A DNA stretch of 64,000 bases, from positions 2,064-66,063 of the IMG/VR virus record IMGVR_UViG_3300010883_026628; one strand, written 5' to 3'. Source of the DNA: a virus (lineage: Duplodnaviria > Caudoviricetes). Shown here piece after piece: positions 18,841 through 39,428 of the stretch (position 1 is the first letter of the stretch; each line of letters opens with the position of its first letter). The notes under the pieces are model-generated. The model was not told where the DNA came from. It was given only the letters and a program-made list of their open reading frames with translations, and did no database searches. The translations under genes were made by a program, and so were the position numbers.

Positions 18841-20733
18841 ATGTTCGATACCCCGTTTAAAGAAGAAATTCCAGATATTATCTTTGTCGCAGACTTTTAT
18901 GCTAAAGATATCCCAGGTGGCGCTGAACTAACTACTCAGGCCTTGATAGATAGTGCTCCAGAGAATATTAATATATCAGCTATATACTCAAAAGATCTTA
19001 CAATGGAGTTAATGCAAAAGTACAAAGACTGTTATTGGATATTTACAAATTTTTCCGGAATTAATCTAAACCTAATACCTACCGCTGCATCTAATCTAGA
19101 TTACTCTATTATAGAGTACGATTATAAGTTTTGCAAATATCGCTCTATAGAAAAACATCAGCATATTGAAAATGCAGAATGTGATTGTCATGAGCAAATT
19201 CATGGAAAGATGATCTCTGCATTCTTCCTAGGCGCCAAAAATGTTTGGTGGATGTCTGAGGCTCAGGAACAACGATATATCGACCGATTTCCCTTTTTAG
19301 GAGAAATAGAGTCAGTAGTATTAAGCTCTGTTTTCGATGATAAATTTTTTATAAAAATTGCTGACCTGAATAAAGAAGAAAAAGACAGAACGGGTTGGCT
19401 GATTCTAGAGTCGACCAGCTGGATAAAGGGCACTGATGATGCTGTAGAACATTGCGAAAAAAATAATCTAGATTTCGAAAAACTTTCCGGCTTATCGCAC
19501 ACTCAGGTTCTAGAAAAACTATCCTCTGCAGAAGGGCTGGTATACCTTCCCAGGGGTGGCGACACATGTCCTCGATTAGTTATCGAAGCTAAGATGCTAG
19601 GGTGCGATTTAGTTTTAAATGAATATGTTCAACACAAGAATGAGATTTGGTTTAATACCACTGACAGCTTCGACACTAGCGCTTATCTTTTTGCCGCTCG
19701 TGAAAGATTTTGGGATGGTATAATTTCTAAGATGAATTGGTCACCAACAATTTCAGGTTATACGACTGTTTATAACTGCGACGAAAATGAATACCCATGG
19801 GAAAAATGCATTGAATCGATGTTAGGTTTTTGCGATGAAGTTATTATCATCGACGGTGGATCCACAGATGGTACATGGGAAAAATTAATAAAGATGTCTG
19901 AATTAGATTCCCGTCTAGTAGTTGAGCAAAATATTATAGATTGGGACCATCCACGCTTCGCATATCGTAGTGATGGAATGCAAAAAGCATATGCACGCTT
20001 AAAGTGCTCTTCTGACTTTTGTTGGCAAATGGATAGCGATGAGTTTGTTCTTCCAAAAGACTATAAGAAAGTCAAAGATTTAGTCAAGAGATTCCCAAAG
20101 TTAACTGAATTAGTAGCCTTACCAGTCGTTGAATTCTGGGGAGGTTACGATAAAATACGCGTAGACGTTAACCCATGGAAGTGGAGAGTATCAAAAAATA
20201 TCCCTCAAATAACCCATGGCATCCCCCTAGAGCTTCGAAGGGAAGATGAGGATGGAAATCTATATACTGCACCGGGCAGTGACACATGTGACTATATTCA
20301 TCCTGAAAGCTTTAAGAGAACAAAGTTTTTGGCTTTCTATTCTGAAGAAATTGAGCACCATCGAAGAAATGCATTAGTAGGTAATCATGATAGTTTAGAA
20401 AAATTCCAAAGCTGGATAGCCATGGCTACCGAAAGCATTCCAACCATTTATCATATGTCATGGTTCGACTTAGAAAGAAAGATTAATCTATATAAGAATT
20501 TTTGGTCTAAGTTTTGGCAATCTCAATATAATATGCCCCAGGAAGATACTCCGGAAAATAATATGTTTTTTAATAAGAAATGGTCTAGTGTAACCAATGA
20601 AGAAATAAAGGAGTTAGCAATCCGTCTAGGTACTGAGATGGGTGGTTGGATATTTCATAATAAGATTGACTGGAACGCTAAAACCCCTCATATCACCATC
20701 ACTCACGGTTGCAAAGAGTTTCTGGAGAATTAA
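18841..20733 (+). CDS. Bifunctional glycosyltransferase (N-terminal GT-B/GT4-like + C-terminal GT2)
   Basis: GT-B motif DTCPRLVIEAKMLGC. GT2 motifs ISGYTTVYN..CIESML..DEVIIIDGGSTDGT and QMDSDE. Confidence 0.8.
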   Translation: MFDTPFKEEIPDIIFVADFYAKDIPGGAELTTQALIDSAPENINISAIYSKDLTMELMQKYKDCYWIFTNFSGINLNLIPTAASNLDYSIIEYDYKFCKYRSIEKHQHIENAECDCHEQIHGKMISAFFLGAKNVWWMSEAQEQRYIDRFPFLGEIESVVLSSVFDDKFFIKIADLNKEEKDRTGWLILESTSWIKGTDDAVEHCEKNNLDFEKLSGLSHTQVLEKLSSAEGLVYLPRGGDTCPRLVIEAKMLGCDLVLNEYVQHKNEIWFNTTDSFDTSAYLFAARERFWDGIISKMNWSPTISGYTTVYNCDENEYPWEKCIESMLGFCDEVIIIDGGSTDGTWEKLIKMSELDSRLVVEQNIIDWDHPRFAYRSDGMQKAYARLKCSSDFCWQMDSDEFVLPKDYKKVKDLVKRFPKLTELVALPVVEFWGGYDKIRVDVNPWKWRVSKNIPQITHGIPLELRREDEDGNLYTAPGSDTCDYIHPESFKRTKFLAFYSEEIEHHRRNALVGNHDSLEKFQSWIAMATESIPTIYHMSWFDLERKINLYKNFWSKFWQSQYNMPQEDTPENNMFFNKKWSSVTNEEIKELAIRLGTEMGGWIFHNKIDWNAKTPHITITHGCKEFLEN

Positions 20734-20735
20734 AG

Positions 20736-21440
20736 ATGCCAAAAGTATCTATAATTGTACCGGTTAAAAACTGCGGTAAAACAATCAACAAATCAATAAA
20801 GTCAGTGCTAGATCAAACATATACTGACTTCGAAATAATCGTTGTTGACAATAATTGTACTGATGATACAATCAAAAAAATTCGATCGCTAAAAGATGAT
20901 AGAATAAAAGTAGTTGAATGTCATATTCCTGGTATAGTCCCAGCATTAAATACTGGACTAAAAAACGCGACAGCTCCGTTAATTGCTCGTCAAGATGGCG
21001 ATGATGTCTGGTATGTGGACAAACTGGAAAAGCAAATAAAGATCTTTGATAATAGGGATAATATTGATATATGTGGAACTCAAATAAGACTAGTAACAGC
21101 AGCCGGTATTGTCACTGATGACGAATTTCGCTATCCACTAAACGATACAGCGATAAAGTCCTGGCTTTTGACTGGTAAGAATGCTATAGCGCACCCTTCA
21201 GTAATGTTTAAAAAAGAAGTATTGTTAAGGATCGGTGGTTATGATGATTCATACCCTATTGCAGAAGATCATCATATGTGGTTAAGGTGTATCAAATGGT
21301 TTAACTTTTGCAATTTAGGAGAGGTTCTGGTGGACTATAATTCTAATCATAATCCAAAATATGACCCCCAAATTCCATTATTGGCTTCTGAGGCTCAATT
21401 TAAGTTATTAAAACACACAGGGTTTGTAAAAGTATGCTAA
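20736..21440 (+). CDS. GT2 family glycosyltransferase
   Basis: VSIIVPVKN, SVLDQTYTDFEIIVVDNNCTDDT, ARQDGDD, HPSVM and AEDHHMW. ATG at 20736 preferred over 20709. Confidence 0.92.
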   Translation: MPKVSIIVPVKNCGKTINKSIKSVLDQTYTDFEIIVVDNNCTDDTIKKIRSLKDDRIKVVECHIPGIVPALNTGLKNATAPLIARQDGDDVWYVDKLEKQIKIFDNRDNIDICGTQIRLVTAAGIVTDDEFRYPLNDTAIKSWLLTGKNAIAHPSVMFKKEVLLRIGGYDDSYPIAEDHHMWLRCIKWFNFCNLGEVLVDYNSNHNPKYDPQIPLLASEAQFKLLKHTGFVKVC

Positions 21441-22216
21441 CTAGTCTACAAATAGGACAAAATGGTCGTTTAGGAAACCAAATGTTTCAATATGCGGCTT
21501 TAGCGTCCGTTGCCTTCACCAGAGGGTTTAACCATTATTTGCAAAAAAATGATGATGTTGACTTATGGAAAATATTCAAGATGGAAGGTGTAGACATCTT
21601 GACAGAAGAGATAGCTAATACATTACAATACCGATATCCCGAACCTGACTTTCATTTCAATGCTAGCGCATTTTTAGTAGAAGACAATACTGATATGTTT
21701 GGGTATTTTCAGTCACCAATATATTTTGGTAATTGTTTTGAGATGATAAAAAAGACATTTACTTTTAAAGATGAGATAAGTACCGTAGCAACTACTACTT
21801 TTAAGAAACACACAGATACCCGACCAATATGCTCTATACATATACGGAGGGGTGATTATCTAACTAAGAGTAACTACCACCCTCCGTGTACAATTGAGTA
21901 CTATAACGAAGCAAAAAAACGTGTTCTCGCAGCCACTAACAACAACATTAAATTTCTTCTATTTGGTGATGATCATCAATGGATCAAAGATAACTTATTA
22001 GACGATCGTTCCACTTTAATTGAAGGAAATACTCCAGAGGTAGACATGTGTATGATGTCAAAATGTTCTGCACATATTATATCTAACTCTTCTTTTTCAT
22101 GGTGGGGAGCTGTGTTAGGAAATTTTCAGGGTGTAGTGGCTCCCAGTATGTGGTTTGGTCCTGATGGACCTAAGAGATGGGACACAATTTATATCCATGG
22201 ATGGAGTGTGGTGTGA
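21434..22216 (+). CDS. GT11 alpha-1,2-fucosyltransferase
   Basis: GRLGNQMFQYA, GYFQS, HIRRGDY and IISNSSFSWWGA. Confidence 0.92.
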   Translation: MLTSLQIGQNGRLGNQMFQYAALASVAFTRGFNHYLQKNDDVDLWKIFKMEGVDILTEEIANTLQYRYPEPDFHFNASAFLVEDNTDMFGYFQSPIYFGNCFEMIKKTFTFKDEISTVATTTFKKHTDTRPICSIHIRRGDYLTKSNYHPPCTIEYYNEAKKRVLAATNNNIKFLLFGDDHQWIKDNLLDDRSTLIEGNTPEVDMCMMSKCSAHIISNSSFSWWGAVLGNFQGVVAPSMWFGPDGPKRWDTIYIHGWSVV

Positions 22217-22956
22217 CTAGTATAGGTATAATTTTCATTGGTACCGGCCCCTATATAGAATTTCTTGACGGATTTCAAAAAAGGGTAAATCGTTTTTTTT
22301 GTCCTAAAATAGAGAAGAAAATCTACGCGTTTACAGACTGTATGGACCATTCTAGTCTAGATTATAAAAACATAGAGTCTATTCAAATTGATCATGTGGG
22401 GTGGCCTTTTATAACTTTACATCGTTTTAAATTTATGAACTCGATATCTGATAAGCTAAGATCTCATTCTCATATTTTCTTTATCGACGCCGACTTGTGG
22501 CCTGTAGATGATATTCATTTTTCTGATTTCTTTGATACGGGAGAAAGTCATGACTTTGTAGCTGTCCAGCATCCAGGATTTGTCGATAAGCCCGGGACAT
22601 TTGAGAATAATAAAGAATCCACCGCCTTTGCATACTCAGGCCTTTATGATTTATCTGTGTATCGTCAGGGTTGCTTTTGGGGTGGTACGGTTGAGTCTAT
22701 ACTCGCTATGATATCTACTTGCGAGAAGAACGTAGACACAGATACAAACAACAATATTATAGCAAAATGGCACGATGAATCTCATATGAATAAATATTTT
22801 TTACAAAATCCCACCAACGTAAAGACCTTAAGTCCTGGATACGCAACACCAGAAGCGCCAGGCTACGATTTCGTTTGGAGGACCCATAAAGTTAAAATGG
22901 TTCACTTGAATAAAGATCCTAAAGAGTTTCCTAGATTCGAAGGTGCAGGTAACTAA
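22213..22956 (+). CDS. GT6 (ABO/alpha-1,3-Gal(NAc) transferase family) glycosyltransferase
   Basis: IGIIFIGTGPY..F, FTD, WPFITLHRF, DAD (DXD), HPGF, QGCFWGG and AKWHDESHMNKYF. GTGA overlap with the GT11 stop. Confidence 0.9.
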   Translation: MTSIGIIFIGTGPYIEFLDGFQKRVNRFFCPKIEKKIYAFTDCMDHSSLDYKNIESIQIDHVGWPFITLHRFKFMNSISDKLRSHSHIFFIDADLWPVDDIHFSDFFDTGESHDFVAVQHPGFVDKPGTFENNKESTAFAYSGLYDLSVYRQGCFWGGTVESILAMISTCEKNVDTDTNNNIIAKWHDESHMNKYFLQNPTNVKTLSPGYATPEAPGYDFVWRTHKVKMVHLNKDPKEFPRFEGAGN

Positions 22957-22958
22957 TA

Positions 22959-23912
22959 ATGAAAATTTGTATTATTGGCCCCGGAATGATATCTATACCT
23001 CCTATTGGCTGGGGTGCTGTTGAAATTTTAATAGATGATTATAGAAATAGTCTAGAAGCTCTAGGTCACGAAGTATACATCATTAATACAAAAGATATGG
23101 CATTAGCTGCTTTCATTACCAACAATCTTTCTCCTGACTTTGTCCACGTCCAATATGACGATTATATCGACTTAGCCAAAGATCTGGTGTGCAAAAACGT
23201 AGCAATTACTAGCCACTACGCTTATCTAGAGAACAAATCTAGATGGAATCACGATTATAACAATTTTTTTATAAAGACATGTCTCTCAGATATAAACATA
23301 TTTTGTTTGTCTGAAGAGATCGCTAGTGTATACCGCGACGCATGTGTTTCTGATGATAGGTTATTCGTGACCAGGAACGGCGTTCGTAATGACTTATTTG
23401 ACTTTAACGAAGAATGCTTAAAACCTAATGATAGCATTTACTTAGCAAAAATTGATGAAAGAAAAGGCCAATATAAATACCGTCATATAGAAAGTTTATG
23501 GTTCCACGGTGGAATTTCTGATAATCGATTTCCTGACTGGCACCCTCGCTATTTAGGCGAAGTGACAAAGCAAGAACTGTATAAGCGTCTAACACAGTGG
23601 GCAAATTTGGTTTTGCTAAGTGATGGTGAAGCCCATCCACTAGTTTGTATGGAGGCGCTGTCTGCCGGACTAGGATTGGTTTTATCTGAGTGCGCCACTG
23701 CAAATCTAGATGTTAAGCTACCATTCATAGATATTATTCCTAATGACAGACTAGACGATATTGAATATGTTTCCGGTGTTATAGGCAGAAATAGAGAGAA
23801 GTCAATTACTATGAGGAGTGAAATAAAAGAGTACAGTACATTCTTTTCTTGGTCGGAAACAATCAAAAGCAATTATATACCAATTATTGAAAAAATAATA
23901 GGTAAAAAATAA
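22959..23912 (+). CDS. GT-B (GT4-like) glycosyltransferase, paralog 1
   Basis: IPPIGWGAVE, LAKIDERKGQ and LSDGEAHPLVCMEALSAG. Confidence 0.85.
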   Translation: MKICIIGPGMISIPPIGWGAVEILIDDYRNSLEALGHEVYIINTKDMALAAFITNNLSPDFVHVQYDDYIDLAKDLVCKNVAITSHYAYLENKSRWNHDYNNFFIKTCLSDINIFCLSEEIASVYRDACVSDDRLFVTRNGVRNDLFDFNEECLKPNDSIYLAKIDERKGQYKYRHIESLWFHGGISDNRFPDWHPRYLGEVTKQELYKRLTQWANLVLLSDGEAHPLVCMEALSAGLGLVLSECATANLDVKLPFIDIIPNDRLDDIEYVSGVIGRNREKSITMRSEIKEYSTFFSWSETIKSNYIPIIEKIIGKK

Positions 23913-23916
23913 CGAT

Positions 23917-24858
23917 ATGAAAATTTGTTTAATAGGTCCTGGAATTCTACCAATTCCTCCCACTGGATGGGGCGGTTGCGAAATATTAATGTGGAATCTA
24001 AAGTGCGAACTAGAAAATCAAGGCCATGATGTCCTAATAGTTAATACTAAAGATCTACGAAAAGCTATTAACGATACGAATATATGGTCTCCTGACTTCG
24101 TTCATCTTCATTATGATGAATATGCTGATATTATGCCCTACATAACTGCTCCTCGAGCAATGACTAGTCATTATCCCTATCTAGACTACCCTGCAAAACG
24201 ATCTGGCTACGAATGGATATTTCAGAAGTTTTCACAAAACCATTCTCATATTTTTAGTCTTTCCGATAGAAACAGTTATCACTTTAGAATTAATGGGGTC
24301 AGTTCAGATCTCGTCTGGGACTGGATGTATGGGGTTCCATCATCAGATTTCCGCTTTGTTGAAAGTCCCGTACATCATAATAAGACGATATGCTTAGGGA
24401 AAATAGAGCCAAGAAAGTTCCAATCTTTCCTACAAAATGTTAAAAATATAGATTTTGCCGGTCCTATAGCAGATAATAGATTTAAGAAATTATCAAGTTA
24501 TTTAGGAATCTGGACTAGGGATCAAGTCTATAATAACTTAACTAATTATGCTAATTTAGTTTTGTTTAGCGATGGCGAAGCAGCTCCGCAGGTTGTACCT
24601 GAAGCCCTCATCGCCGGCTGTGGGTTAGTACTTTCAGAAGAAGCCGCGGCCAACCTAGACTTAAGTCTACCATTTATAGACGTCGTAAAAACAGATTGTT
24701 CTTCTGATGAGCTTGATATTATAATAAAAAATAATAGAATTAAATCGTTAGGTATGCGGAGCCAAATTAGGAAATATGGCCTAAATAAATTTGGTATGAC
24801 TAGCTGTACAAAGTTATATATCAAAAAAATAGAAAAGATTATTGCTGATGCTAGATAG
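23917..24858 (+). CDS. GT-B (GT4-like) glycosyltransferase, paralog 2
   Basis: IPPTGWGGCE, LGKIEPRKFQ and FSDGEAAPQVVPEALIAG; collinear with paralog 1. Confidence 0.85.
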   Translation: MKICLIGPGILPIPPTGWGGCEILMWNLKCELENQGHDVLIVNTKDLRKAINDTNIWSPDFVHLHYDEYADIMPYITAPRAMTSHYPYLDYPAKRSGYEWIFQKFSQNHSHIFSLSDRNSYHFRINGVSSDLVWDWMYGVPSSDFRFVESPVHHNKTICLGKIEPRKFQSFLQNVKNIDFAGPIADNRFKKLSSYLGIWTRDQVYNNLTNYANLVLFSDGEAAPQVVPEALIAGCGLVLSEEAAANLDLSLPFIDVVKTDCSSDELDIIIKNNRIKSLGMRSQIRKYGLNKFGMTSCTKLYIKKIEKIIADAR

Positions 24859-24866
24859 GATAGAAT

Positions 24867-25868
24867 ATGCTTAATTTTGAAAATATAGATGAAAAGTTTG
24901 TAAGAACAGTTAATAGCGAAGAGTGGAAAGAACTCCAGTCAAAATATAATAAGTGCAGTGATATATACGTTCTGGGTCACGGTGGAAATATGGCCGTTGC
25001 AGACCACACAGCTATTGATATGACGCGCCTTTCTAATGGGACAAAAAATGCGATATGTCCAGGAAGTTGTGTTGTGGCAACCTCATATATTAACGATACA
25101 AATTTTGATCAATGGATGGTTGCCTGGCTTCAGTCTAGAACCTCAACAAGAACGAAGTCTCAAATGTCAAATTCTCTTGTGTATGGGATATCATCATCTG
25201 GAAAATCAAAAGATGTAATCAAAGCGCTTCAATGGGCATCTGACAATGGAATGGAAGTATGTCTAATCACTGCAAAACCAATAGAGCCAGAAATAAAAAG
25301 CCTAACTCAAGTAGTATTAAACGTAGATTATTATCATACAGCAGAGTGCCTTTCCCTGTTATTACAGTATCAGTTGACTCACGGCTCCGGAAATGTTTGT
25401 CCCCCGATTGGCCAAAATACACCGGAAGAGTTAGAGAGATTAAACTGGAAAGGAACAGAGATCAGGAAGCATAGTTATCCTGATGAAAAAGTAAATATAG
25501 GTGTAGATTTCGATGGTGTTATTCACAAATGTAGTAAAGGATTTTTTAATGGTACGATTTACGATGATCCAATTGATGGTTCAAGGGAAGCCTTAAAGCA
25601 GCTTTCTGAAAATAATGTTGTGATTATATACACATGCAAAGCAAAGCCAGATCGAGGATTAGTCGATGGAAAAACTGGTACAGAATTAGTTTGGGATTGG
25701 TTAAAAAAGCATAATATGGCGCAATACGTTTCAAAAGTAACAGCTGAAAAACCTCGTGCTAAATTCTATATTGATGATAAAGCAATAGAATTTAAGAGCT
25801 GGTCCCAAGCGTTAAAAAGAATAAACCTTGGTACTAATGTCCTTAAAGATTCTAATGAAAAGTCTTGA
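24867..25868 (+). CDS. SIS (GmhA-like) sugar-phosphate isomerase fused to a HAD phosphatase
   Basis: SIS motifs IYVLGHGGNMAVADH and GISSSGKSKDVIKAL. HAD motifs IGVDFDGVIH, IYT and KP..KFYIDDKA. Confidence 0.8.
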   Translation: MLNFENIDEKFVRTVNSEEWKELQSKYNKCSDIYVLGHGGNMAVADHTAIDMTRLSNGTKNAICPGSCVVATSYINDTNFDQWMVAWLQSRTSTRTKSQMSNSLVYGISSSGKSKDVIKALQWASDNGMEVCLITAKPIEPEIKSLTQVVLNVDYYHTAECLSLLLQYQLTHGSGNVCPPIGQNTPEELERLNWKGTEIRKHSYPDEKVNIGVDFDGVIHKCSKGFFNGTIYDDPIDGSREALKQLSENNVVIIYTCKAKPDRGLVDGKTGTELVWDWLKKHNMAQYVSKVTAEKPRAKFYIDDKAIEFKSWSQALKRINLGTNVLKDSNEKS

Positions 25869-26568
25869 TCATAAAATTTTAGGAAAGAAACTGTCTTTAA
25901 AGAAAGCAAAAAGCCAAATAGACAGTTTGATTATCGATTTAGAGCAGCAACATTACTTGCACAGAAAGATCCAATTCTTGCTCGATATTCGAGGATATCT
26001 AAAGGTTAATAATATTTCTGGGTCTTATGTCGAATTTGGTTCATTCAAATCAGAAATGCAATATGCTGCTTTTAAAATTTTAGAAGAGACCGATTGTATC
26101 ACTAGTTACGTAGGCTTAGATTCATTTAGCGATAATCTAGAATTTTCCGATGAAGATAAAGATCATAATATATATGAGATCCCCACCGATTTTAATTGTG
26201 ATTTCGAGACAGTTGATAAGTTCGTAAAGAGTAATATCGGTGAAAAAGCCGTACTAATTCAGGGCGATTTTCGCACAAACAAGATAAAAGAAGAATTTAA
26301 AAGTGCTGTTAATGACATTTCCGTAGCAGTTTTTGATTGTAACTTTGTGTCTTCAACCACCGCTGCTTTAGAACTCTTAGATGAGCTTGTTATTCCAGGA
26401 TGCGTGTTATTTTTTGATGATTATTTAACTAATTTTAATAATGGCGTTCCAGCAATGCCAGATTTAATTGATACATTTTTTAGCAAGTCTAGATTTGAAT
26501 TATTAGATCATGGTTCTTACCCACCATTCGGAAAATCGTTTATTGTAATAGAGAGAGGTCGACAATGA
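25855..26568 (+). CDS. TylF/MycF-like sugar O-methyltransferase
   Basis: GSYVEFG, GLDSF, LIQGDF, FDCNF.SST and PGCVLFFDDY. Confidence 0.75.
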   Translation: MKSLDHKILGKKLSLKKAKSQIDSLIIDLEQQHYLHRKIQFLLDIRGYLKVNNISGSYVEFGSFKSEMQYAAFKILEETDCITSYVGLDSFSDNLEFSDEDKDHNIYEIPTDFNCDFETVDKFVKSNIGEKAVLIQGDFRTNKIKEEFKSAVNDISVAVFDCNFVSSTTAALELLDELVIPGCVLFFDDYLTNFNNGVPAMPDLIDTFFSKSRFELLDHGSYPPFGKSFIVIERGRQ

Positions 26569-27335: not shown

Positions 27336-27337
27336 TT

Positions 27338-29698: not shown

Positions 29699-29699
29699 T

Positions 29700-30263: not shown

Positions 30264-30267
30264 TACT

Positions 30268-30972: not shown

Positions 30973-31943
30973 TTATAGCTAAGGCACCATTTAGGATAAC
31001 TCTCGGCGGAGGTGGCACAGACTTACCCAGCTTTTATGAGAAGCACGGTGGATTCGTTTTGTCAATGGCACTAGACAAATATATATACGTGTGTCTTAAG
31101 CCTTTGGCAATGACCGACAAGATAAGACTTCAATATTCCAAAACAGAGTTAGTAAAATCAGCTAACGAGCTGCAGCATAATAGGGCCAGGCAAGCGTTAC
31201 TTCGTCATAACCTTACCAATGGACTAGAAATAGTAAGCATTGCGGATCTTCCAGCCAGCTCCGGGTTAGGTTCATCTGGAAGCTACCTTGTTGCTCTTTT
31301 ATCTGCCATTCGACATCAAAAAAGACTACCAACAGATCCTATAACAGTAGCTAGTGAAGCCTGCGAGATTGAGATTGTGGACTTAAATCAACCAGTGGGA
31401 AAACAAGATCAGTATATCTCTGCCTTCGGTGGCGTTCAAGAGTTACATATAGCCAAAAGTGGCACTGTCGATGTTAAGCCCTCAAGCGTGTCTGCCTATA
31501 ATTTAAATGAGCTATTATCTAGATTACACGTCTATTATACCGGTGTACTAAGAAACGCCTCAGACATTCTTACCGCACAAAGTAAGCTAAGGGGCAAGTC
31601 AGAAGAAAGTCTTCTAAAGATAAAGGAGCTAGGTTATAAGTTTTCCGAAGCCCTAAATAAAGGTGATTTTGACACTTTTGGTTTATTACTCCATGAGCAT
31701 TGGGAGAGTAAGAAGAAGATGTCTAATAAAATCACACTTGACAAAGTTGATAAACTATATGAAATTGTTAGAAAAGACTTTGGCGTTCTTGGTGGTAAGA
31801 TCATCGGCGCCGGCGGCGGCGGATTTTTGATGTTATATAGTCCACAAAAAGATTCTCTACTTCAAAGTTATATGGAGTCCCACGGATTAACTAGACTAAA
31901 CTATAATGTCAATATGACAGGAACAACTGTAACAACAGTTTAG
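30969..31943 (+). CDS. hddA: GHMP kinase, D-glycero-alpha-D-manno-heptose-7-phosphate kinase-like
   Basis: APFRITLGGGGTDLP, SGLGSSG, GKQDQY..AFGG and GGKIIGAGGGGF. Confidence 0.9.
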   Translation: MIIAKAPFRITLGGGGTDLPSFYEKHGGFVLSMALDKYIYVCLKPLAMTDKIRLQYSKTELVKSANELQHNRARQALLRHNLTNGLEIVSIADLPASSGLGSSGSYLVALLSAIRHQKRLPTDPITVASEACEIEIVDLNQPVGKQDQYISAFGGVQELHIAKSGTVDVKPSSVSAYNLNELLSRLHVYYTGVLRNASDILTAQSKLRGKSEESLLKIKELGYKFSEALNKGDFDTFGLLLHEHWESKKKMSNKITLDKVDKLYEIVRKDFGVLGGKIIGAGGGGFLMLYSPQKDSLLQSYMESHGLTRLNYNVNMTGTTVTTV

Positions 31944-31951
31944 GGATTATT

Positions 31952-32254
31952 ATGATTTATTGCTTTGATATTGATGGTACAATTTGTAATACTGACGGAA
32001 ATGATTATTCAAGCTCAACTCCATTTGTCGATGTAATCAACAAGATAAAACAGTTATATCATGAAGGCCACGTAATAAAAATGTTTACTGCTCGCGGAAG
32101 TGTTTCTGGGAGAGACTGGACACAACTTACTGCAAGACAACTGAAGGAATGGAACGTACCTTATCATGAATTAATAATGAATAAGAAGCCGCACTATGAT
32201 GTATTAATAGATGATAAAGCTATTAACGCTATGGCCTGGAGAATGCTCACATGA
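31952..32254 (+). CDS. Small capless HAD-family phosphatase
   Basis: FDIDGTIC, FTARG and KP.YDVLIDDKA. Confidence 0.85.
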   Translation: MIYCFDIDGTICNTDGNDYSSSTPFVDVINKIKQLYHEGHVIKMFTARGSVSGRDWTQLTARQLKEWNVPYHELIMNKKPHYDVLIDDKAINAMAWRMLT

Positions 32255-33153
32255 GATGCTTAGTCACTGGGGGCTGTGGTTTCATTGGAGGTCATATTGT
32301 AGATGCCTTAGAGGCCCGCGGACACACCATCGATGTGGTCGATAATCTATCTGCTGAATCTAATATCTCTTACCGCAACGATTCTAAGAATGTGTTATAT
32401 CATGATATTGATATATGCAATTATAGTGAGATGGAAAAATTATTTAATAAGAAAAGATATAATTGGGTTTTCCATCTAGCTGCAGAGTCAAGAATACAAC
32501 CATCTTTAATAAATCCTGTGAAAGCTACCCATGTAAACGTCTTAGGAACATGTTCATTATTAAATCTTTGTAGAGATTATAAGGTTAATAGGTTTGTATA
32601 TTCATCCACATCAGCTTGTTATGGAACAAAAAATAAACCTCCCCTGACCGAAGACATGTTAAATGATAATCTAAATCCCTACGCCGTAACCAAGTTGGCT
32701 GCAGAAGATTTTTGTATGATGTATTGGAAAACGTTTTATACTCCGACTGTGGCTTTAAGATATTTTAACGTTTACGGTGATAGAATGCCTAGTAAAGGGC
32801 AATATGCGCCAGCGTTAGCAATCTTTATGAAACAAAGATCTAAGGGCGAACCCTTAACAGTCGTCGGCGACGGAACACAAACTAGAGATTTCGTTCATGT
32901 AAGTGATGTCGTTAAAGCCAACATCGCTGTCGCCGAAGCTGCTGTAGATCACGTTTGTGGCCAGGCATTTAATGTCGGTACTGGTAGAGATATTTCCATT
33001 CTTAAAATAGCAGAAATTATTAGCGATGACATTGTGTATATCCCTCCAAGATCTGGTGAGTCTAAAAATACGTTATGCGATTATACTAAGCTTAATAACG
33101 CTGTTGGTTGGACTCCAGAAATTAATTTAATCGATTGGTTAAAAGAAAATTGA
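32251..33153 (+). CDS. NAD-dependent nucleotide-sugar epimerase (GalE/WbpP-like SDR)
   Basis: TGGCGFIG, HLAAE, YSSTSACYG, YAVTK, LRYFNVYG and GDGTQTRDFVHV. Confidence 0.92.
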   Translation: MRCLVTGGCGFIGGHIVDALEARGHTIDVVDNLSAESNISYRNDSKNVLYHDIDICNYSEMEKLFNKKRYNWVFHLAAESRIQPSLINPVKATHVNVLGTCSLLNLCRDYKVNRFVYSSTSACYGTKNKPPLTEDMLNDNLNPYAVTKLAAEDFCMMYWKTFYTPTVALRYFNVYGDRMPSKGQYAPALAIFMKQRSKGEPLTVVGDGTQTRDFVHVSDVVKANIAVAEAAVDHVCGQAFNVGTGRDISILKIAEIISDDIVYIPPRSGESKNTLCDYTKLNNAVGWTPEINLIDWLKEN

Positions 33154-34106
33154 AAAAAAATGTATATATCACCGGCGGTTCCGGATTAGTTGGTACTGCG
33201 TTTAAGAATTCAAGCCACGATTCTATAAACTGGCACCCGATACCAGGACCGTCGACCGGTGGTCCTGATTTTTTGGATAGAAAGCAAACATTTGATTTTT
33301 TTGAGAAGAGTAAAGCTGACGCAATTGTACATACCGCTGCTCGAGTAGGTGGTATAAGGGCTAATATGGAAAACCCTTTAGATTTTTATTCTGAAAATAC
33401 TAGAATAAATGTGAATGTATTAGATGCCGCGGCTCATTTTGGGATCAAAAAGTGCATTTCTTTTTTATCGACATGTGTGTATCCAGACAATACAACATTT
33501 CCGTTAAGCGAAAACAAGATACATCTGGGTGCTCCCCATTCTTCAAATTTTGCTTATGCTTATGCTAAAAGAATGTTGGATATACATTCTAGAGCGATCA
33601 AGTCCCAATTGGGATTTAACTATTTTTGTGTATCCCCGAACAACTTATACGGTATAAATGATAATTTTGATCTTGAAAATTCCCATGTAATTCCTGCAAT
33701 AATCCGAAAGATGTATGACGCAAATAGGCTGGGCAATAATGAAGTTAAGCTGTGGGGTTCCGGCACTCCCTTAAGAGAATTTACCTTTGCCGATGACATA
33801 CCCGATATAATCGGCTTCTTATTAACTCGTAATCATAACATAGACGATGTTATTAATATAGGTAATACCATGGAAGAGGTCACTATAAACAAAGTGGCTA
33901 GATTAATCAGAAAGTGTCTGGGGTATAATATGAACGTTATATGGGACACCTCTCAACCTACCGGACAATTAAGAAAACCATCATCAAGTGAAAAGCTTGA
34001 AGCGCTGGGCTATGATCTAAATAGTATGACTAAGATCGAAGACGGATTAACAAAAACAATCACCTGGTTTTTAAAAAGTTATCCAAAAATCAGAGGTATT
34101 AAATGA
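33150..34106 (+). CDS. fcl: GDP-L-fucose synthase
   Basis: TGGSGLVG, AARVGGIRAN, FLSTCVYP, YAYAKR, PNNLYGINDNF, SHVIPA and WGSGTPLREF. TTGA overlap start. Confidence 0.92.
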   Translation: MKKNVYITGGSGLVGTAFKNSSHDSINWHPIPGPSTGGPDFLDRKQTFDFFEKSKADAIVHTAARVGGIRANMENPLDFYSENTRINVNVLDAAAHFGIKKCISFLSTCVYPDNTTFPLSENKIHLGAPHSSNFAYAYAKRMLDIHSRAIKSQLGFNYFCVSPNNLYGINDNFDLENSHVIPAIIRKMYDANRLGNNEVKLWGSGTPLREFTFADDIPDIIGFLLTRNHNIDDVINIGNTMEEVTINKVARLIRKCLGYNMNVIWDTSQPTGQLRKPSSSEKLEALGYDLNSMTKIEDGLTKTITWFLKSYPKIRGIK

Positions 34107-35074
34107 CCACTGCTTTAATAACTGGCATTTCTGGCCAAGACGGCTCTTATTTGGCAGAGTATTTACTTTCTCTAGGGTATAAGGTGGTTGGATTAAAGAG
34201 AAGAACCAGCTTAATTTGTACAGATAGGATCGATCATATCTTTTACCACAAAAACTTTAGTCTGGAGTATTTTGAACTAGATGATCCAGGCGTAATATAT
34301 CGATTAATAAGCAAGTATAATCCAGATGAGATTTATAATTTAGCTGCGCAATCTCATGTAAGAGTAAGTTTCGATATACCTTTATCTACAATAAATACTA
34401 TGGTAACCGGTGTAACTAATATATTAGAAGCGATTAGAAATACAAACCAAAAGATCAAATTTTATCAAGCTTCCTCTTCTGAAATGTTTGGTGATAACCC
34501 GAACATACCTCAAAACGAGTTTACTAGACTTTCTCCGGCTAGTCCATATGCATGTGCGAAAGTCTTCGCTCACCACTTAGTCAGGAATTATAGGGAATCC
34601 TATAATATGTTTGCAACTAGCGGGATCCTTTTCAATCATGAATCTCCTAGAAGGGGCGAGACATTTGTAACTAGAAAAATTACCCTCGCCGCTGCGAGAA
34701 TTAAATTAGGTCTACAAGAGAAGCTCTATTTAGGAAATTTAGATGCCTTAAGGGACTGGGGTTTTGCTGGTGATTATGTGAAAGCCATGCATTTAATGTT
34801 ACAACAATCAAACCCCGATGACTACGTAATAGCCACAGGTAAAGCGTATAGTGTAAAAGATTGGTTGACAAAGGTTTTTGAAATAGCTCATCTATCAATA
34901 GACGAATATGTAGAGACGGATCCTAGATTATTTCGTCCCCATGAGGTACCTCACCTTTTAGGAGATCCTTCTAAGGCTAAAAATATTCTAGGGTGGGTTC
35001 CAGAAACTGATTTTGAGTCGTTGGCAGAAATGATGTATAAAGAAGATTTAAATTATGTAAAAAGCCTAAAGTGA
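34103..35074 (+). CDS. gmd: GDP-mannose 4,6-dehydratase
   Basis: ALITGISGQDGSYLAE, YNLAAQSHV, FYQASSSEMFG, LFNHESPRRGETFVTRKIT and RDWGFAGDYV. Confidence 0.96.
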   Translation: MTTALITGISGQDGSYLAEYLLSLGYKVVGLKRRTSLICTDRIDHIFYHKNFSLEYFELDDPGVIYRLISKYNPDEIYNLAAQSHVRVSFDIPLSTINTMVTGVTNILEAIRNTNQKIKFYQASSSEMFGDNPNIPQNEFTRLSPASPYACAKVFAHHLVRNYRESYNMFATSGILFNHESPRRGETFVTRKITLAAARIKLGLQEKLYLGNLDALRDWGFAGDYVKAMHLMLQQSNPDDYVIATGKAYSVKDWLTKVFEIAHLSIDEYVETDPRLFRPHEVPHLLGDPSKAKNILGWVPETDFESLAEMMYKEDLNYVKSLK

Positions 35075-35089
35075 TATTATGATTAATTA

Positions 35090-35968
35090 ATGTCTATAGA
35101 TCAAAATAATAAACTCCCTATACTACCAAACCACAAGCCACATATTTCTTATTCTGAGATTCGTAACTGGAAAGAGTGTCCGTGGCGCCACAAGTTAGCA
35201 TACATCGATAAGATCAATATGTTTGAAATGTCTCCCTACCTTTCATATGGCACCGCGGTACATAATGGGATAGAGAATTTTTTACTAACAGGAAAAATGG
35301 ACGTCGATTCTGCGTTACAAGAAATTAGACAAGAGTGGGAGAAACACCGATTTGATGGTGACGAATTTATTGCTGTCCAAGCTGCGCATCGTAAAAGTAA
35401 CGGATGGAAACCAAAAGATCATATCTACCTACCATCGTGGCTCGAATATGCTAAGAATAGTTTAGAAGAGATTCCAGGTTTCCTGAAAGAAACGTTTGGC
35501 GATTATGAAGTAGTGAGTGCAGAAGAACAGTTATATGAACATGTACCCGCAGTCGACGCCTATTTTAAGGGATTTATTGATGCGCTTATAAAGACCACTG
35601 ATCGTAATGGCAAAGAAATCTACTGGGTAATAGATTGGAAAACAGCCGGAGACAAAGGATGGTATGCGAGTAAGAGAAAAGATATCTTAACATGGGCCCA
35701 GATCGCACTTTATAAACATTTTTGGAGAACAAAGGAGGAAATAGATATAAAGTCTGTTAGATGCGGATTCGTCCTCTTAAAGAGAGGCGCACCAGCTGGA
35801 AATACGTGCGAGTTAGTGAAGGTTTCTGTTGGACCAAAAGCAGAAGAAAAATGTACCTCTATTTTAAGAAGTATGGTTTTGTCAATGAAGCGCGGTCTTT
35901 TTCTCAAAAACAGGAATTCCTGTATGTTTTGTGACTACAAGGGAACAGAGCACTGCCAAGGCAGTTAA
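35090..35968 (+). CDS. PD-(D/E)XK nuclease, Cas4/AddB-like with probable Fe-S staple
   Basis: HISYS....ECP, GTAVH, KGFIDAL, IDWKT, QIALY and a C-terminal CMFC......HC. Confidence 0.85.
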   Translation: MSIDQNNKLPILPNHKPHISYSEIRNWKECPWRHKLAYIDKINMFEMSPYLSYGTAVHNGIENFLLTGKMDVDSALQEIRQEWEKHRFDGDEFIAVQAAHRKSNGWKPKDHIYLPSWLEYAKNSLEEIPGFLKETFGDYEVVSAEEQLYEHVPAVDAYFKGFIDALIKTTDRNGKEIYWVIDWKTAGDKGWYASKRKDILTWAQIALYKHFWRTKEEIDIKSVRCGFVLLKRGAPAGNTCELVKVSVGPKAEEKCTSILRSMVLSMKRGLFLKNRNSCMFCDYKGTEHCQGS

Positions 35969-35986
35969 GGTTATTAGGTAAAGCGT

Positions 35987-37240
35987 ATGGAAAAATATAA
36001 GATATTATTATTGTCTGATCATGCCTTAAGCCCCTCTGGGGTTGGCGTTCAATCTAGGTTCTTGTCCCATGGTCTAATAGAGAAAGGTCACTGGACAATC
36101 CGTCAACTCGGCGCAGCAATTCAACATGAAGATTATTCACTAACCAAGGTTACTGATGATTTTTTGATTAAGCCTGTCGACGGTTTTGGTACCCCTGAAA
36201 TGATTCGTTCTCTTTTGGCTTCTGAAAAACCAGATATTATTCTATTGTTTACTGATCCTAGGTTCTTTGTTTGGTTGTGGCAAATGGAAGACGAAATTCA
36301 TCAAATATGTCCAATTGCGTATTGGCATGTATGGGACAATAAGCCGTTTCCTACATTCAACAACCAATTTTATGAAGCAACAGACTTAATTAATTGTCAT
36401 AGCCATCATACATATGAACAAGTTAAGGAGCATTGGCCAGATAGAACAAATTTTATTCCACATGCTTTACCTGAAGATGTATTTTTTAAATTAGACAAAC
36501 AGGCAATACAAAATCATAAAAATGATCTTTTAGGAAAAGAGAAAATTAATGATTTTGTGTTATTCTGGGTTAATCGTAATGCAAAAAGAAAACGACCGGC
36601 CGATGTATTAGACTCATGGAAAAGATTTTTAGATAAAATAGAAAGTGTGAAAGGAAGAAAGCCTGCGACACTAATAATGCATACCGATCCTTATGATGAA
36701 GAAGGTCCCGATTTGACAGAAGTTGTTAAACTTTTAGGGATAGCTGATAATGTAATATTTTCTACACAAAGAGTCGGATTTGGAGAGATGAATATACTAC
36801 ACAACATCGCTGATTGCTCTATTAATATATCCTATGCTGAAGGTTTTGGCCTAGGCACTCTAGAGTCACTGCAGGTAGGAACCCCGATAATCGCTACAAA
36901 GACCGGTGGTCTATCTAGACAAGTAGTCGATTATAGAGACAACACAGAGAACGGTATCGCTCTAGATGTAGAGTTTCGTTCTCTGGTTGGCTCTCAAAAC
37001 GTTCCTTATATATATGAAGACTACGTTTCATCAGAATCTATTTCAGAAGCAATTTTAAAGATGTATAAAATGTCACCTAGCGAACGTGAAGAGTTAAGTG
37101 AAAAATGCTGTCAATATGTCAAGTCTGAATTTTCTTATCAAAAGACTGTTAACGAGTGGGATAAAACGCTTCTGCAAACAATCAATGATTGGAAGAAAGG
37201 AAAATCGACAACGAATCGATTTGAACTTATCAAGTTATGA
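35987..37240 (+). CDS. GT4 family glycosyltransferase
   Basis: LLSDH..SPSGVG, NRNAKRK and AEGFGLGTLESLQVGTPIIATKTGG. Confidence 0.88.
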   Translation: MEKYKILLLSDHALSPSGVGVQSRFLSHGLIEKGHWTIRQLGAAIQHEDYSLTKVTDDFLIKPVDGFGTPEMIRSLLASEKPDIILLFTDPRFFVWLWQMEDEIHQICPIAYWHVWDNKPFPTFNNQFYEATDLINCHSHHTYEQVKEHWPDRTNFIPHALPEDVFFKLDKQAIQNHKNDLLGKEKINDFVLFWVNRNAKRKRPADVLDSWKRFLDKIESVKGRKPATLIMHTDPYDEEGPDLTEVVKLLGIADNVIFSTQRVGFGEMNILHNIADCSINISYAEGFGLGTLESLQVGTPIIATKTGGLSRQVVDYRDNTENGIALDVEFRSLVGSQNVPYIYEDYVSSESISEAILKMYKMSPSEREELSEKCCQYVKSEFSYQKTVNEWDKTLLQTINDWKKGKSTTNRFELIKL

Positions 37241-38397
37241 AAAACATTTTAGTAAGAGGCCCTTTATTAAATTCCGCCGGATACGGCGTACATGCTAGAC
37301 AAATTTTTAGTTATCTACACCAGCGTGGCGATTGCAAGTTAAACGCTCAGGTTACCCCGTGGGGTATTTGTACTTTTTATATGAATGGTGATTATGAAAA
37401 TGGGTTAATATCAAAAATAATAGATGTTAGTCACCCATCTGATGAGCCTTTTGATATATCATTCCAAATACAACTTCCGAACGAATGGGATCCTAATGTA
37501 GCTAGATTTAACATAGGCGTAACAGCTGGTGTAGAAACAGATATCTGTTCTAAAAAGTGGGTCGATTGTATTAATAAAATGGATTTAGTAATTGTCCCAT
37601 CCACACACACGAAATCTACCTTTGAAAGATCAGGTAATATAACAACAAGGATTTTTGTTGTTCCAGAATATGTCATATCTGAAATAATAGATAAAAAATA
37701 TGAACCAATGGAACTAGATGTAGAGACAAGTTTCAACTTTTTAATGTTCGGACTAATAACTGGACAAAATATTGAAGCTGATAGAAAAAACACATTTTAT
37801 GGGATAAAGTGGCTTTGTGAAACGTTCAAAGATGATCCAGATGTCGGAGTTATTATCAAAACGTCTTTAGGACGGATGTCTACAATAGACCGTCGAAACA
37901 CTGTCAACCTCTTAAGGAGGGTTATTGGTGAAGTGAAAACCGGAGAATATCCTAAATTTTATTTATCTCATGGTCTTATGACAAATGATGAGGTTTCTTC
38001 TTTTTATAGAAGTCCTAATCTTAATGCGTTGGTTTCTTTTACTCGTGGTGAGGGATATGGATTACCCTTGCTGGAGGCTGCCGCTTCGGGCTTACCTGTG
38101 ATGGCCACAAAATGGTCTGGGCATATGGACTTTTTAAGCAATATTAGATTTTCTGCCTTTGATTATGATCTTGTTAATGTGCATGAAAGCAGAATAGACA
38201 ATGAAGTTTTTATTCAAGGTAGCAAATGGGCACACCCTAGGGAAGAAGATGTAAAAAGACGTTTAAGAAAAATAAGGCAATCCTATAAAGTGCCAATCGA
38301 TTGGGCTAAGTCCGGAGCAGAGGTACTAACCAAAAGCCTAAATAATACTTCAGTGTATAAGATTTACGATAAAGTCTTAAGTGATATATTAACATGA
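37237..38397 (+). CDS. GT4 family glycosyltransferase
   Basis: GPLLNSAGYGVHAR, IVPSTH, DRKN and TRGEGYGLPLLEAAASGLPVMATKWSGHMDF. Confidence 0.88.
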   Translation: MKNILVRGPLLNSAGYGVHARQIFSYLHQRGDCKLNAQVTPWGICTFYMNGDYENGLISKIIDVSHPSDEPFDISFQIQLPNEWDPNVARFNIGVTAGVETDICSKKWVDCINKMDLVIVPSTHTKSTFERSGNITTRIFVVPEYVISEIIDKKYEPMELDVETSFNFLMFGLITGQNIEADRKNTFYGIKWLCETFKDDPDVGVIIKTSLGRMSTIDRRNTVNLLRRVIGEVKTGEYPKFYLSHGLMTNDEVSSFYRSPNLNALVSFTRGEGYGLPLLEAAASGLPVMATKWSGHMDFLSNIRFSAFDYDLVNVHESRIDNEVFIQGSKWAHPREEDVKRRLRKIRQSYKVPIDWAKSGAEVLTKSLNNTSVYKIYDKVLSDILT

Positions 38398-39420: not shown

Positions 39421-39428
39421 GAGATGAA

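Follow-up and report, generated by a model that had tools for sequence, protein, structure and literature searches.

The window analysed in this study is a stretch of 64,000 nucleotides from the IMG/VR virus record IMGVR_UViG_3300010883_026628, and its central element is an island of sugar-related genes at positions 18841-38397. The source record is 66,063 bp long and approximately 18% complete (CheckV); therefore, the window represents a piece of a jumbo phage genome. The eight sequencing runs listed as containing it are all marine or seawater metagenome DNA, and none is RNA. For comparison, we used three close relatives available as IMG/VR fragments (G001-G003, the window's own phage being G000), the large relative G005 (293,409 bp with repeats at its termini; 100% complete) and a further large relative, G006 (92% complete).

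The island contains 22 open reading frames (ORFs), all on the + strand, with a coding fraction of 99.7% and gaps between genes of -56 to +18 nt. Twenty-one of these genes are sugar-related, and the remaining one encodes a PD-(D/E)XK nuclease. Pfam and NCBIfam profiles, with which 45 window ORFs were scanned, and predicted folds together reproduce the ten glycosyltransferase (GT) genes that a sequence-only reading of this DNA had counted. Genes of the donor pathways on its gene list (GDP-fucose, heptose and CMP-sugar) are also present, together with two epimerases and one methyltransferase; the gene at 35090-35968 encodes the nuclease and is not a sugar gene. These results confirm the observation of a multi-gene soluble sugar island in a large phage.

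Gene content of the island

The first gene (18841-20733) encodes a two-domain GT of 630 aa, hereafter GT630, in which Pfam places a GT2 domain at residues 311-418. In the predicted structure (AlphaFold2, pLDDT 91.9), residues 9-300 adopt a GT-B fold of the GT4 type (Z 20.5, root-mean-square deviation 3.3, 273 residues aligned), and the C-terminal remainder is assigned to GT-A/GT2 by Foldseek. The model confirms the previously proposed GT-B/GT2 fusion, and by its predicted fold GT630 is a true two-domain GT-B/GT-A enzyme. A GT2 glycosyltransferase follows (20709-21440; PF00535, 97.7 bits). At the other end of the island, the nuclease (35090-35968; PF12705, E 4.6e-19) belongs to the backbone and marks the end of the variable cassette, and it is followed by GT4c and GT4d (35987-38397, starts at 35987 and 37237; PF00534, E 9e-13 and 2.4e-5), two conserved GT4 'anchors' that lie between the nuclease and the baseplate block. 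Four GT4-like genes had been proposed earlier, and Pfam supports these two. The other two, a pair of paralogues of 317 aa and 313 aa (22959-24858, starts at 22959 and 23917; 43% mutual identity), have sub-threshold family matches only (Glyco_transf_4, E 9e-4; Agl16, E 1.6e-6 and 4e-5).

The GDP-L-fucose pathway is encoded at 33135-35074 by an Fcl-like synthase and then Gmd, both identified by NCBIfam profiles. Gmd exceeds its equivalog cut-off (TIGR01472, 434.8 bits vs. 415), and the Fcl-like SDR scores below its own (NF047922, 242 bits vs. 500); the pair may act on GDP-heptose instead. The product of 21434-22216 resembles GT11 alpha-1,2-fucosyltransferases, since its family profile far exceeds the cut-off (PF01531, 97.7 bits vs. 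23.9) and HIRRGD at residue 136 matches the GT11 motif HxRRxD. The next gene (22177-22956) encodes a GT6 retaining alpha-1,3-hexosyltransferase of the DXD-bearing minimal phage/marine type (PF03414, 83.2 bits vs. a cut-off of 25). Aligned with the Bacteroides enzyme BoGT6a (E 4e-28), it keeps WHDE (residue 198) and the HPGF histidine and has DAD (residue 104) opposite the NAN of BoGT6a. The features by which CAZy recognizes GT6, namely a profile score above the cut-off, the catalytic Glu and the DXD donor motif, are all present. In GT6 enzymes, the Glu is described as catalytic, the His is associated with 2'-fucosylated acceptors, and DXD is a hallmark of the clade of cyanophage P-SSM2 and marine metagenomes (PMC3516806).

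GT6 homologues are present in 72 cyanophage records. The location of GT11 just upstream of GT6, with Gmd and Fcl in the same island, suggests that Fuc-alpha-1,2-Gal would be extended at O-3. Escherichia coli O86 mimics histo-blood-group antigens by means of paired GT11 and GT6. Adjacent GT11 and GT6 are likewise described for mimicry of the BoGT6a type, although the Bacteroides GT6 enzymes carry NXN and a membrane-binding tail, in contrast to the DXD of the phage enzyme (PMC3516806). A histo-blood-group A/B-like trisaccharide appears to be the best-supported part of the putative glycan. The earlier description of the glycan as fucosylated thus seems well supported, and its description as ulosonate-capped and methylated is plausible.

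Two further transferases, 39% identical to each other, are predicted to have a sialyltransferase fold. Paralogue 1 (268 aa, 28237-29043) has no Pfam match, paralogue 2 (26565-27335) falls short of the PF00777 cut-off (E 3e-4, 20.8 bits vs. 23), and phmmer searches of the PDB with both returned nothing useful. The AlphaFold2 model of paralogue 1 (pLDDT 92.1, from an alignment of 35 sequences) gave 28 Foldseek matches at E<=1e-3 among GT29 and GT42 sialyltransferases, with ST6Gal1, ST8SiaIII and CstII in the lead (E 5e-6, TM-score 0.38-0.52). The family of this protein comprises 41 metagenomic proteins, five of which have a precomputed PF00777 match, and a relative of the two paralogues in G005 reaches PF00777 at 1e-21. 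Two GT29-like genes had been claimed from the sequence; the predicted fold of paralogue 1 points the same way, and the Pfam evidence is sub-threshold for one and absent for the other. The sialyltransferase fold also rules out the 268-aa protein as the missing Kdo-8-P or nonulosonate synthase.

Paralogue 1 stays beside the gene for a CMP-sugar (ulosonic acid) synthetase-like cytidylyltransferase in relatives as it does in the window (28988-29698; PF02348, CTP_transf_3, E 2.7e-17; PseF, 68.5 bits vs. a cut-off of 206; KdsB, 36 bits). The CMP-sugar module, which consists of these two genes and a SIS-HAD fusion that combines a sugar-phosphate isomerase with a phosphatase (24867-25868; SIS, E 4.5e-5; GmhA, 1.6e-7; Hydrolase_6, weak), is kept in G001-G003, and SIS-HAD also occurs in locus L019, there as split genes. 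A profile scan of the window found no NeuB- or KdsA-type synthase. Candidates for this step occur in relatives: NeuB (8e-64) beside a clear GT29 (1e-21) in G005, an HMGL-like aldolase between GT29 and CTP_transf_3 in locus L024, and an HpcH-type aldolase fusion in locus L017. The G005 island (loci L106-L107, ~82,000-110,000) carries a near-full nonulosonic-acid pathway, with PseB-like, DegT aminotransferase, formyltransferase, NeuB and GT29 genes, and it also contains GT9, split HldE-like genes and a carbamoyltransferase.

The heptose cassette (29700-32254) encodes a GmhA-like SIS isomerase, a transaldolase (TIGR02134, 302 bits vs. a cut-off of 282), an HddA-like GHMP kinase (NF049969, E 5.5e-45, under the cut-off) and a small HAD phosphatase. 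It varies between close relatives, and no HddC- or HldE-type nucleotidyltransferase was found anywhere in the window. Two SDR genes complete the set of sugar-nucleotide enzymes. One encodes a nucleotide-sugar epimerase/dehydratase (27338-28237; PF01370, E 2.5e-47; TIGR02197, 123 bits vs. a cut-off of 275) for which heptose 6-epimerase is the best model, under its cut-off, and the other a GalE-like epimerase (32251-33153; PF01370, E 1.4e-57; TIGR01179, 177 bits vs. a cut-off of 262). The sugar O-methyltransferase of the earlier list corresponds to an existing gene (25828-26568), whose assignment as a class I S-adenosylmethionine (SAM) methyltransferase-like protein and possible sugar O-methyltransferase is weak (Methyltransf_24, E 8e-4; TylF, E 8e-3; both under the cut-off).

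Conserved anchors around a hypervariable cassette

Searches of 50,697 phage records with the island (megablast) and with GT630 (tblastn) returned zero matches. A pattern scan of IMG/VR for GT630 confirmed 299 loci, which is a lower bound, and the best 80 were used for the cassette counts. The 80 loci are not independent of one another, as they include several near-duplicates and two loci from G001 and G002. The best 120 of 2534 matches to GT630 are all at least 52% identical, are nearly all full-length and sit on contigs of up to ~290 kb, and across the 80 loci the homologues are 50-83% identical. The transaldolase pointed to no host, as its closest homologues lie on other large contigs and its cellular matches (57-59% identity) come from scattered phyla.

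In the 80 loci, the gene order is PhoH, a small conserved gene, one or more fibre-like genes, GT630, often GT2, which comes directly after GT630 in 46 of the 79 loci that have a next gene, and then a variable run. Among the loci that reach far enough, the 3' end often shows Fcl and Gmd, which are kept in this position in many islands, followed by the nuclease, GT4c, GT4d, the downstream block and the baseplate genes. The nuclease is reached within 10 kb in 13 of the 80 loci, 0 to 11 genes after GT630, and GT4c follows it in ten of these; of the other three loci, two stop at the nuclease and one in a cut ORF. The order of nuclease and GT4c holds in the complete relative G005 as well, and the association with structural genes that the sequence-only reading proposed to look for in related phages is thus found wherever the loci extend to the baseplate genes. 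Directly 5' of GT630, a fibre-like or fibre-sized gene is present in 46 of the 71 loci that have an ORF of 150 aa or more at this place (17 with a fibre-like match and 29 with a long ORF without a match).

The outer elements of this frame are well conserved. Between the window and G005, the identity of GT630 (52%), GT4c (62%) and GT4d (50%) is as high as that of the structural proteins gp6 and gp25 (41% each), and the minimal locus, L093, consists of GT630, the nuclease, GT4c and GT4d and nothing more. The interior of the frame is hypervariable in gene content between relatives, while the flanks stay syntenic. In G001-G003, the island occupies the same place (46-90% amino-acid identity), and the cassettes differ in that the heptose genes have moved or are of another type and the transaldolase and the methyltransferase are missing. 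G005 keeps the synteny of the window around an island of 28 kb and 31 genes. These comparisons show conserved anchors around a hypervariable cassette as the lineage-wide frame.

The variable runs of the 80 loci contain 858 ORFs, which form 305 clusters at 35% identity. Pfam was applied at E<=1e-7 to 140 cluster representatives, which stand for 693 of the 858 ORFs. The GT families recognized were GT2, GT4, GT6, GT9, GT10, GT11, GT29 and GT47, in addition to MptE-like proteins; the other transferases comprised carbamoyl-, sulfo-, methyl-, formyl-, acetyl- and aminotransferases, with one radical SAM enzyme, and the sugar-nucleotide enzymes comprised Ugd, Glf, RmlC/D-type, WecB-type and split HldE-like proteins. 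Many of the 140 representatives had no family match, and Pfam identified no DNA-modification enzyme or transporter among them.

Two observations on relatives may be added. At locus L113 of G005 (~221,600-232,900), a divergent thymidylate-synthase-family gene lies beside genes for a DnaE-type polymerase, an inositol-3-phosphate synthase and FkbM and dcm-like methyltransferases, and this region may be a separate DNA-modification module. The phage represented by loci L017 and L018 encodes gp32, a DnaB-like helicase and a RecA/UvsX-like protein, and its cassette, which lies outside any structural module, contains GT4, GT2, GT11-like and sialyltransferase-fold genes, an aldolase fusion, CTP_transf_3 and Gmd.

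None of the 22 island proteins has a membrane segment by a scan with a 19-residue window at Kyte-Doolittle >=1.6, and the same scan flags a 106-aa and a 542-aa protein encoded downstream. Polytopic proteins are also absent from the 858 cassette ORFs, of which 828 lack hydrophobic segments altogether, 29 show a single marginal segment and one shows two that overlap. Because this hydropathy rule is crude, searches for exporter and primer families were added for the record of the window and four large relatives, including G005 and G006. The flippase (Wzx), polymerase (Wzy/WaaL) and ABC-2 permease families Polysacc_synt, Wzy_C and ABC2_membrane (PF01943, PF04932 and PF01061) and the WecA-type and WbaP-type priming families Glycos_transf_4 and Bac_transf (PF00953 and PF02397) were each found in 0 of these 5 records; the controls were positive in 9 to 14 of 14 genomes (12 and 9, respectively, for the two priming families). 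Among the 395 ORFs of at least 60 aa in G005, a single one, a 1585-aa protein of no family, has more than three hydrophobic segments, and two small proteins have three each. The machinery is soluble and has no export or priming genes of its own in the window and in complete relatives. The earlier claim of an all-soluble island without an exporter or priming gene therefore holds, and it holds beyond the island, as the search of complete relatives did not reveal the lipid-carrier or export genes of a conventional pathway.

Flanking genes and the upstream region

The features at 12883-18840 and 38394-46082 described below are on the + strand. Upstream of the island, 12883-18625 encodes two long variable proteins of 1199 aa and 712 aa that belong to no Pfam or PHROG family and are candidate tail fibres or receptor-binding proteins. 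In close relatives they have 33% identity or no match, where neighbouring genes are 74-89% identical, and they contain a domain that is common to fibre-sized proteins of other phages. The best tail-fibre cluster in Atlas for the 1199-aa protein scores 0.86, which is a lead only. The island had been described as lying between tail-fibre and baseplate genes; the baseplate side is verified by gp25 and gp6, and the upstream proteins are tail-fibre candidates by their variability and by weak Atlas leads.

In addition to these two long proteins, the upstream region encodes a helicase, a triad of DUF444, SpoVR and PrkA, and a PIN-PhoH fusion. The triad (3341-7747) is complete, with DUF444 (YeaH-like), SpoVR (YcgB-like) and PrkA (YeaG-like) far above the Pfam cut-offs, and its identity is 87-92% with G001 and 60-72% with G005. 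Just 17 GenBank phage records contain a PrkA homologue; they come from Thermus phages, a single jumbo phage of Ralstonia and a small number of huge uncultured phages. The PIN-PhoH fusion (429 aa, 10939-12228) is found lineage-wide, usually one to three genes 5' of the sugar island.

The sole sizeable gap of the region, an AT-rich stretch of 215 nt at 18626-18840, lies just before GT630. It holds a tandem repeat of TACTATAC in six copies (Tandem Repeats Finder) and two short motifs, of 11 nt and 9 nt, each of which occurs twice. Parts of the region are kept as blocks in five aligned relatives, more strongly than some proteins. This region is a candidate regulatory region and may be a promoter or operator of the island. 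Elsewhere in the window the two motifs are not enriched, with six matches to motif 1 (a number reached in 39 of 100 shuffles) and three to motif 2 (reached in 17 of 100), and no 9-mer is common to seven intergenic regions. A sigma-70 promoter scan gave 65 sites at 12000-31900 (67.1±9.8 in shuffles) and 72 at 31000-48000 (52.1±7.4), and terminator-like sites numbered 11 (10.9±3.3) and 18 (11.2±3.8), respectively. Because such sites fall on both strands and without a pattern at gene boundaries, operon boundaries cannot be drawn from them.

Downstream, a block conserved in synteny (38394-43595) is packed on the island with gaps of at most 8 nt. It encodes, in order, proteins of 106 aa, 252 aa, 121 aa, 640 aa and 542 aa and then an 83-aa Cys-rich ORF. 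The 106-aa protein, which follows GT4d, has an N-terminal transmembrane segment (hydropathy 2.55), and the 640-aa protein matches Gp5_OB/Phage_base_V hub clusters in Atlas at 0.90, with all ten best matches in agreement. The 542-aa protein (41716-43595) is Pro-rich, with two strongly hydrophobic stretches, and the abutting 83-aa ORF, just 5' of gp25, has several CxxC pairs; neither belongs to a family. The baseplate wedge genes, gp25-like and gp6-like, follow at 43657-46082 (PF04965, E 1.2e-8; PHROGs 261, 43, 219 and 6). Beyond them, 47977-64000 encodes three giant proteins of 1820 aa, 1123 aa and more than 2398 aa, the last running off the window end. Two of the three contain Laminin_G_3/pentaxin-type (ConA-like lectin) domains, and these proteins are candidate distal fibres or glycan-binding structures.

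The acceptor of the glycan

We consider the island to be a phage-autonomous cytoplasmic assembly line for a glycan whose most likely acceptor is a phage-encoded protein, such as a fibre, a baseplate protein or another part of the virion, and we hold this view at somewhat less than even confidence. The order of enzyme action, the donors beyond GDP-fucose and the acceptor are inferred as follows. GT630, GT4c and GT4d would use common host sugar nucleotides to attach an inner glycan to the acceptor, both of them conserved. The hypervariable cassette would supply the special donors, namely GDP-fucose, a heptose derivative and a CMP-activated ulosonic-type sugar, as well as the outer transferases. 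In the window phage, the outer steps would be performed by the GT11 fucosyltransferase and then the fucose-dependent GT6, which would yield the blood-group A/B-like trisaccharide, and further by the two sialyltransferase-fold enzymes and probably the methyltransferase.

Several observations favour a protein acceptor. The GT genes adjoin virion structural genes in the same orientation, and from 18841 onward no gap exceeds 18 nt into the block that ends in the gp5-like hub, gp25 and gp6. Conserved anchors surround a variable middle, and a conserved inner enzyme set argues for a conserved acceptor. Export and priming families are absent from the cassettes and from the complete relatives. Among solved structures, SunS/ThuS and GmaR come closest to the GT-A half of GT630: the peptide S-glycosyltransferases SunS and ThuS lead its Foldseek matches (E 2e-10 to 1.6e-8), and the flagellin O-GlcNAc transferase GmaR is the sole match of GT630 to the PDB by sequence (E 0.0035). 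These modelled and remote similarities are a thin pointer to a protein acceptor. Precedents exist in the glycans on the capsid and tail tube of mycobacteriophages, as cited in PMC12619734, and in the cytoplasmic glycosylation described for giant viruses (PMC9614988).

A more specific proposal, which we make tentatively, is that hundreds of marine jumbo phages possess an O-antigen-like virion 'serotype' system, in which the anchor trio would prime a fibre or baseplate protein and a swapping cassette would build the strain-specific outer glycan. The 'serotype' glycan of the window phage would then be a fucosylated blood-group-like epitope with ulosonate-type and methyl decorations.

A number of results weigh against a virion protein as the acceptor. 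Close behind SunS in the Foldseek list are the chondroitin polymerase K4CP (1.8e-9) and the wall-teichoic-acid GTs RmlT and TarS (3e-8 to 8e-8), and the TM-scores are modest throughout. In 25 of the 71 loci, GT630 is preceded by no fibre-sized gene; the preceding gene is PhoH in seven of them and, in 18, another ORF of less than 400 aa or an opposite-strand ORF without a match. The distant relative at locus L007 keeps the structural backbone in the order fibre-sized gene, nuclease and downstream block and has no GT at the island slot, and GT630 was not found within its 49.7 kb of sequence. A T4-like phage (L017/L018) has a related cassette between the gp32 and RecA genes, and cyanophages hold related cassettes among hli/psbA auxiliary genes; thus, the gene set is not tied to structural modules. 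The gene families themselves are of the types that synthesize lipopolysaccharide (LPS), lipooligosaccharide (LOS) and capsule, such as the heptose pathway, CMP-ulosonate synthetase, GT4 and, in G005, GT9. All published readings of such islands favour a change of the host surface and, as presented in these sources, offer no experiments (PMC7029224, PMC1079782 and PMC7824862). Among publications on phage virion glycosylation in connection with such islands, we found no experimental study of the present lineage.

The best-surviving alternative is remodelling of the host LOS/LPS, which we regard as a serious possibility although not a probable one. According to this explanation, the soluble phage GTs act at the cytoplasmic face on lipid A-core or undecaprenyl-linked intermediates, and host machinery (MsbA/Lpt, or host Wzx/WaaL or ABC transporters) exports the altered glycolipid, for the purpose of superinfection exclusion or to prevent progeny from re-adsorbing to debris. 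It accounts well for pathways of the inner-core and capsule type, namely the GmhA/HddA/HAD heptose genes, the sub-threshold heptose 6-epimerase match and the CMP-ulosonate synthetase, to which G005 adds a GT9 heptosyltransferase and the split HldE-like genes. It also suits a cassette that adjoins the most variable host-range genes and that has similar counterparts outside structural modules, and it is the published reading for P-SSM2, jumbo cyanophages and pelagimyophages (PMC1079782, PMC7824862 and PMC7029224). Furthermore, the LOS loci of Campylobacter jejuni are described as hypervariable, with gmhA, a heptose kinase, gmhB, a sialyltransferase and neuA, and their LOS is assembled on the cytoplasmic side and flipped by machinery encoded elsewhere (PMC7248181). 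Because all-cytoplasmic LOS loci exist, an all-soluble island also fits LOS/LPS remodelling, and the argument from the missing exporter loses its force. The sequence-only reading had moved from the absence of membrane proteins directly to a phage substrate, a step that fails as logic in view of the all-cytoplasmic LOS outer-core loci (PMC7248181); the soluble machinery of its virion-coat reading stands, and the virion as the acceptor is not established.

However, a host-specific acceptor predicts variable first enzymes, and instead the anchors are 50-83% identical and the outer part varies. No phage flippase, ligase or polymerase occurs in the 80 cassettes or the complete relatives, yet hundreds of glycans would need host exporters. 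By Pfam, no GT9 or Kdo-transferase family is present in the window, the genes are packed on baseplate genes, and an LPS-bearing host has to be presumed.

Another or a mixed target is improbable. The GTs might modify phage and host proteins alike, for instance by mimicry of a general protein O-glycan of the host, or the glycan might be built on a soluble compound of the cytoplasm, for example an oligosaccharide for storage or as a decoy, or a small molecule. Complex bacterial protein O-glycans resemble the toolbox found here, which includes fucose, ulosonate-type caps and methyl groups, with carbamoyl and sulfate groups added to these in relatives. The small-molecule GTs BshA and SenB are among the top PDB matches of the GT-B domains, and BshA shares the top sequence matches of GT4c with chlorovirus B736L (4.5e-7). 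However, a small-molecule product would hardly account for a cassette of 20-31 genes that keeps its place within a structural block.

The remaining alternative is that the GTs decorate hydroxymethylated or otherwise activated DNA bases as protection against restriction. Phage GTs related to those of LPS and teichoic acid are reported to place mono- to trisaccharides, including heptose, on 5-hydroxymethylcytosine, with some of the gene clusters near structural genes (bioRxiv 10.1101/2023.12.21.572611); a Thymidylat_synt-family gene occurs in G005, G006 and G007, near a dcm-like methyltransferase in G005, and a nuclease lies within the island frame. This explanation is nevertheless very improbable, since neither the 45 window ORFs nor the 140 cassette representatives include a Tet/JBP, thymidylate-synthase-like or DNA-methylase family, the thymidylate-synthase-like gene of G005 is ~115 kb from the island where such pathways are reported to cluster (bioRxiv 10.1101/2023.12.21.572611), and ten GT genes, fucose, GT6 and the sialyltransferase-fold enzymes, with sulfo- and carbamoyltransferases in relatives, far exceed the one to three sugars known on DNA. 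A search for the Tet_JBP family found 0 in 4 records, with the positive control silent as well.

The island belongs to a known kind, the hypervariable sugar islands of large aquatic phages. The 'host recognition cluster' of pelagimyophages and cyanomyophages is described as a set of hypervariable GT-rich islands by tail fibres and is read as modifying the host O-chain (PMC7029224), P-SSM2 is credited with 24 'LPS' genes (PMC1079782), and jumbo cyanophages with 'capsular polysaccharide modification systems' (PMC7824862). Like the island, the host recognition cluster as described is large and hypervariable and combines GTs with sugar-nucleotide enzymes; it is found within the structural region of big aquatic myophages or next to it, together with tail-fibre genes, for which the window has upstream candidates. 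In pelagimyophages, it occupies a VrlC-gp14 slot, whereas the window lineage has a frame of PhoH, nuclease and baseplate genes and brackets its cassette with the conserved anchors GT630, GT4c and GT4d. Neither VrlC nor gp14 was seen near the island, and its backbone differs from that of pelagimyophages. The earlier statement that this combination of capping enzymes looks unusual was too strong, because GT6 occurs with GT11, epimerases and methyl- and sulfotransferases in published cyanophage genomes.

The moraphages are described as an aquatic jumbo lineage of up to 307 kb with variable islands and a core of PhoH, gp25, gp6 and four GT orthogroups (PMC12619734). These four orthogroups match the four conserved GTs of the window lineage (GT630, GT2, GT4c and GT4d), and, judging by this description, the moraphages may be the same lineage. 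That publication mentions the variable islands but gives no account of how they are arranged or what they contain (PMC12619734). The C. jejuni LOS locus, as described, is similar to the island in its hypervariable cytoplasmic GTs, heptose genes, CMP-sialic-acid genes and sialyltransferase, in the lack of an exporter within the locus and, as an analogy of architecture only, in its conserved inner-core enzymes and variable outer part; it differs in being cellular and in acting on lipid A-Kdo, whereas the window has no GT9 or Kdo-transferase family (PMC7248181). Clusters for O-antigen or capsule that depend on Wzx/Wzy or an ABC transporter differ from the island in having a priming transferase and a flippase, polymerase or permease.

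With respect to virion glycosylation, work by Freeman in 2023 reportedly showed by experiment that soluble phage GTs encoded near structural genes glycosylate virion proteins while these are in the cytoplasm. The mycobacteriophage systems involve a few GTs, whose targets are the C-termini of capsid and tail-tube proteins in siphophages of Gram-positive-type hosts, in contrast to the ten GT genes and donor pathways beside candidate fibre genes and baseplate genes here. Giant viruses use soluble GTs that are independent of the endoplasmic reticulum and in some cases multi-domain, have their own pathways of the GDP-fucose type and clade-specific variable clusters, and decorate capsids or fibrils. 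Virus-encoded glycosylation machinery is described for chloroviruses and mimiviruses (PMC9614988 and PMC5408694). However, these are eukaryotic viruses, and the homology of GT4c with B736L is at the family level only (E 4.5e-7).

The new elements of this case are the lineage-wide frame of anchors and cassette, the finding that complete relatives lack export genes, and the three anchors, which make the question of the acceptor testable with three proteins instead of twenty. If the glycan is on the virion, a very abundant lineage of marine tailed phages would have variable sugar coats made without a host secretory step, with a bearing on adsorption, stability, grazing and immune or lectin recognition, and a sizeable collection of eukaryote-like GTs that are soluble (GT6, GT10, GT11, GT29-like and GT47-like) would act on proteins. 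If the virion 'serotype' proposal is true, glycan coats would be a general and diversifying feature of bacterial viruses, in parallel with giant viruses. If the glycan is on the host LOS/LPS, a lytic phage would devote up to 10% of its genome to re-serotyping its host. The question dates from the report of 'LPS genes' in P-SSM2 in 2005, and an answer in either direction would settle it.

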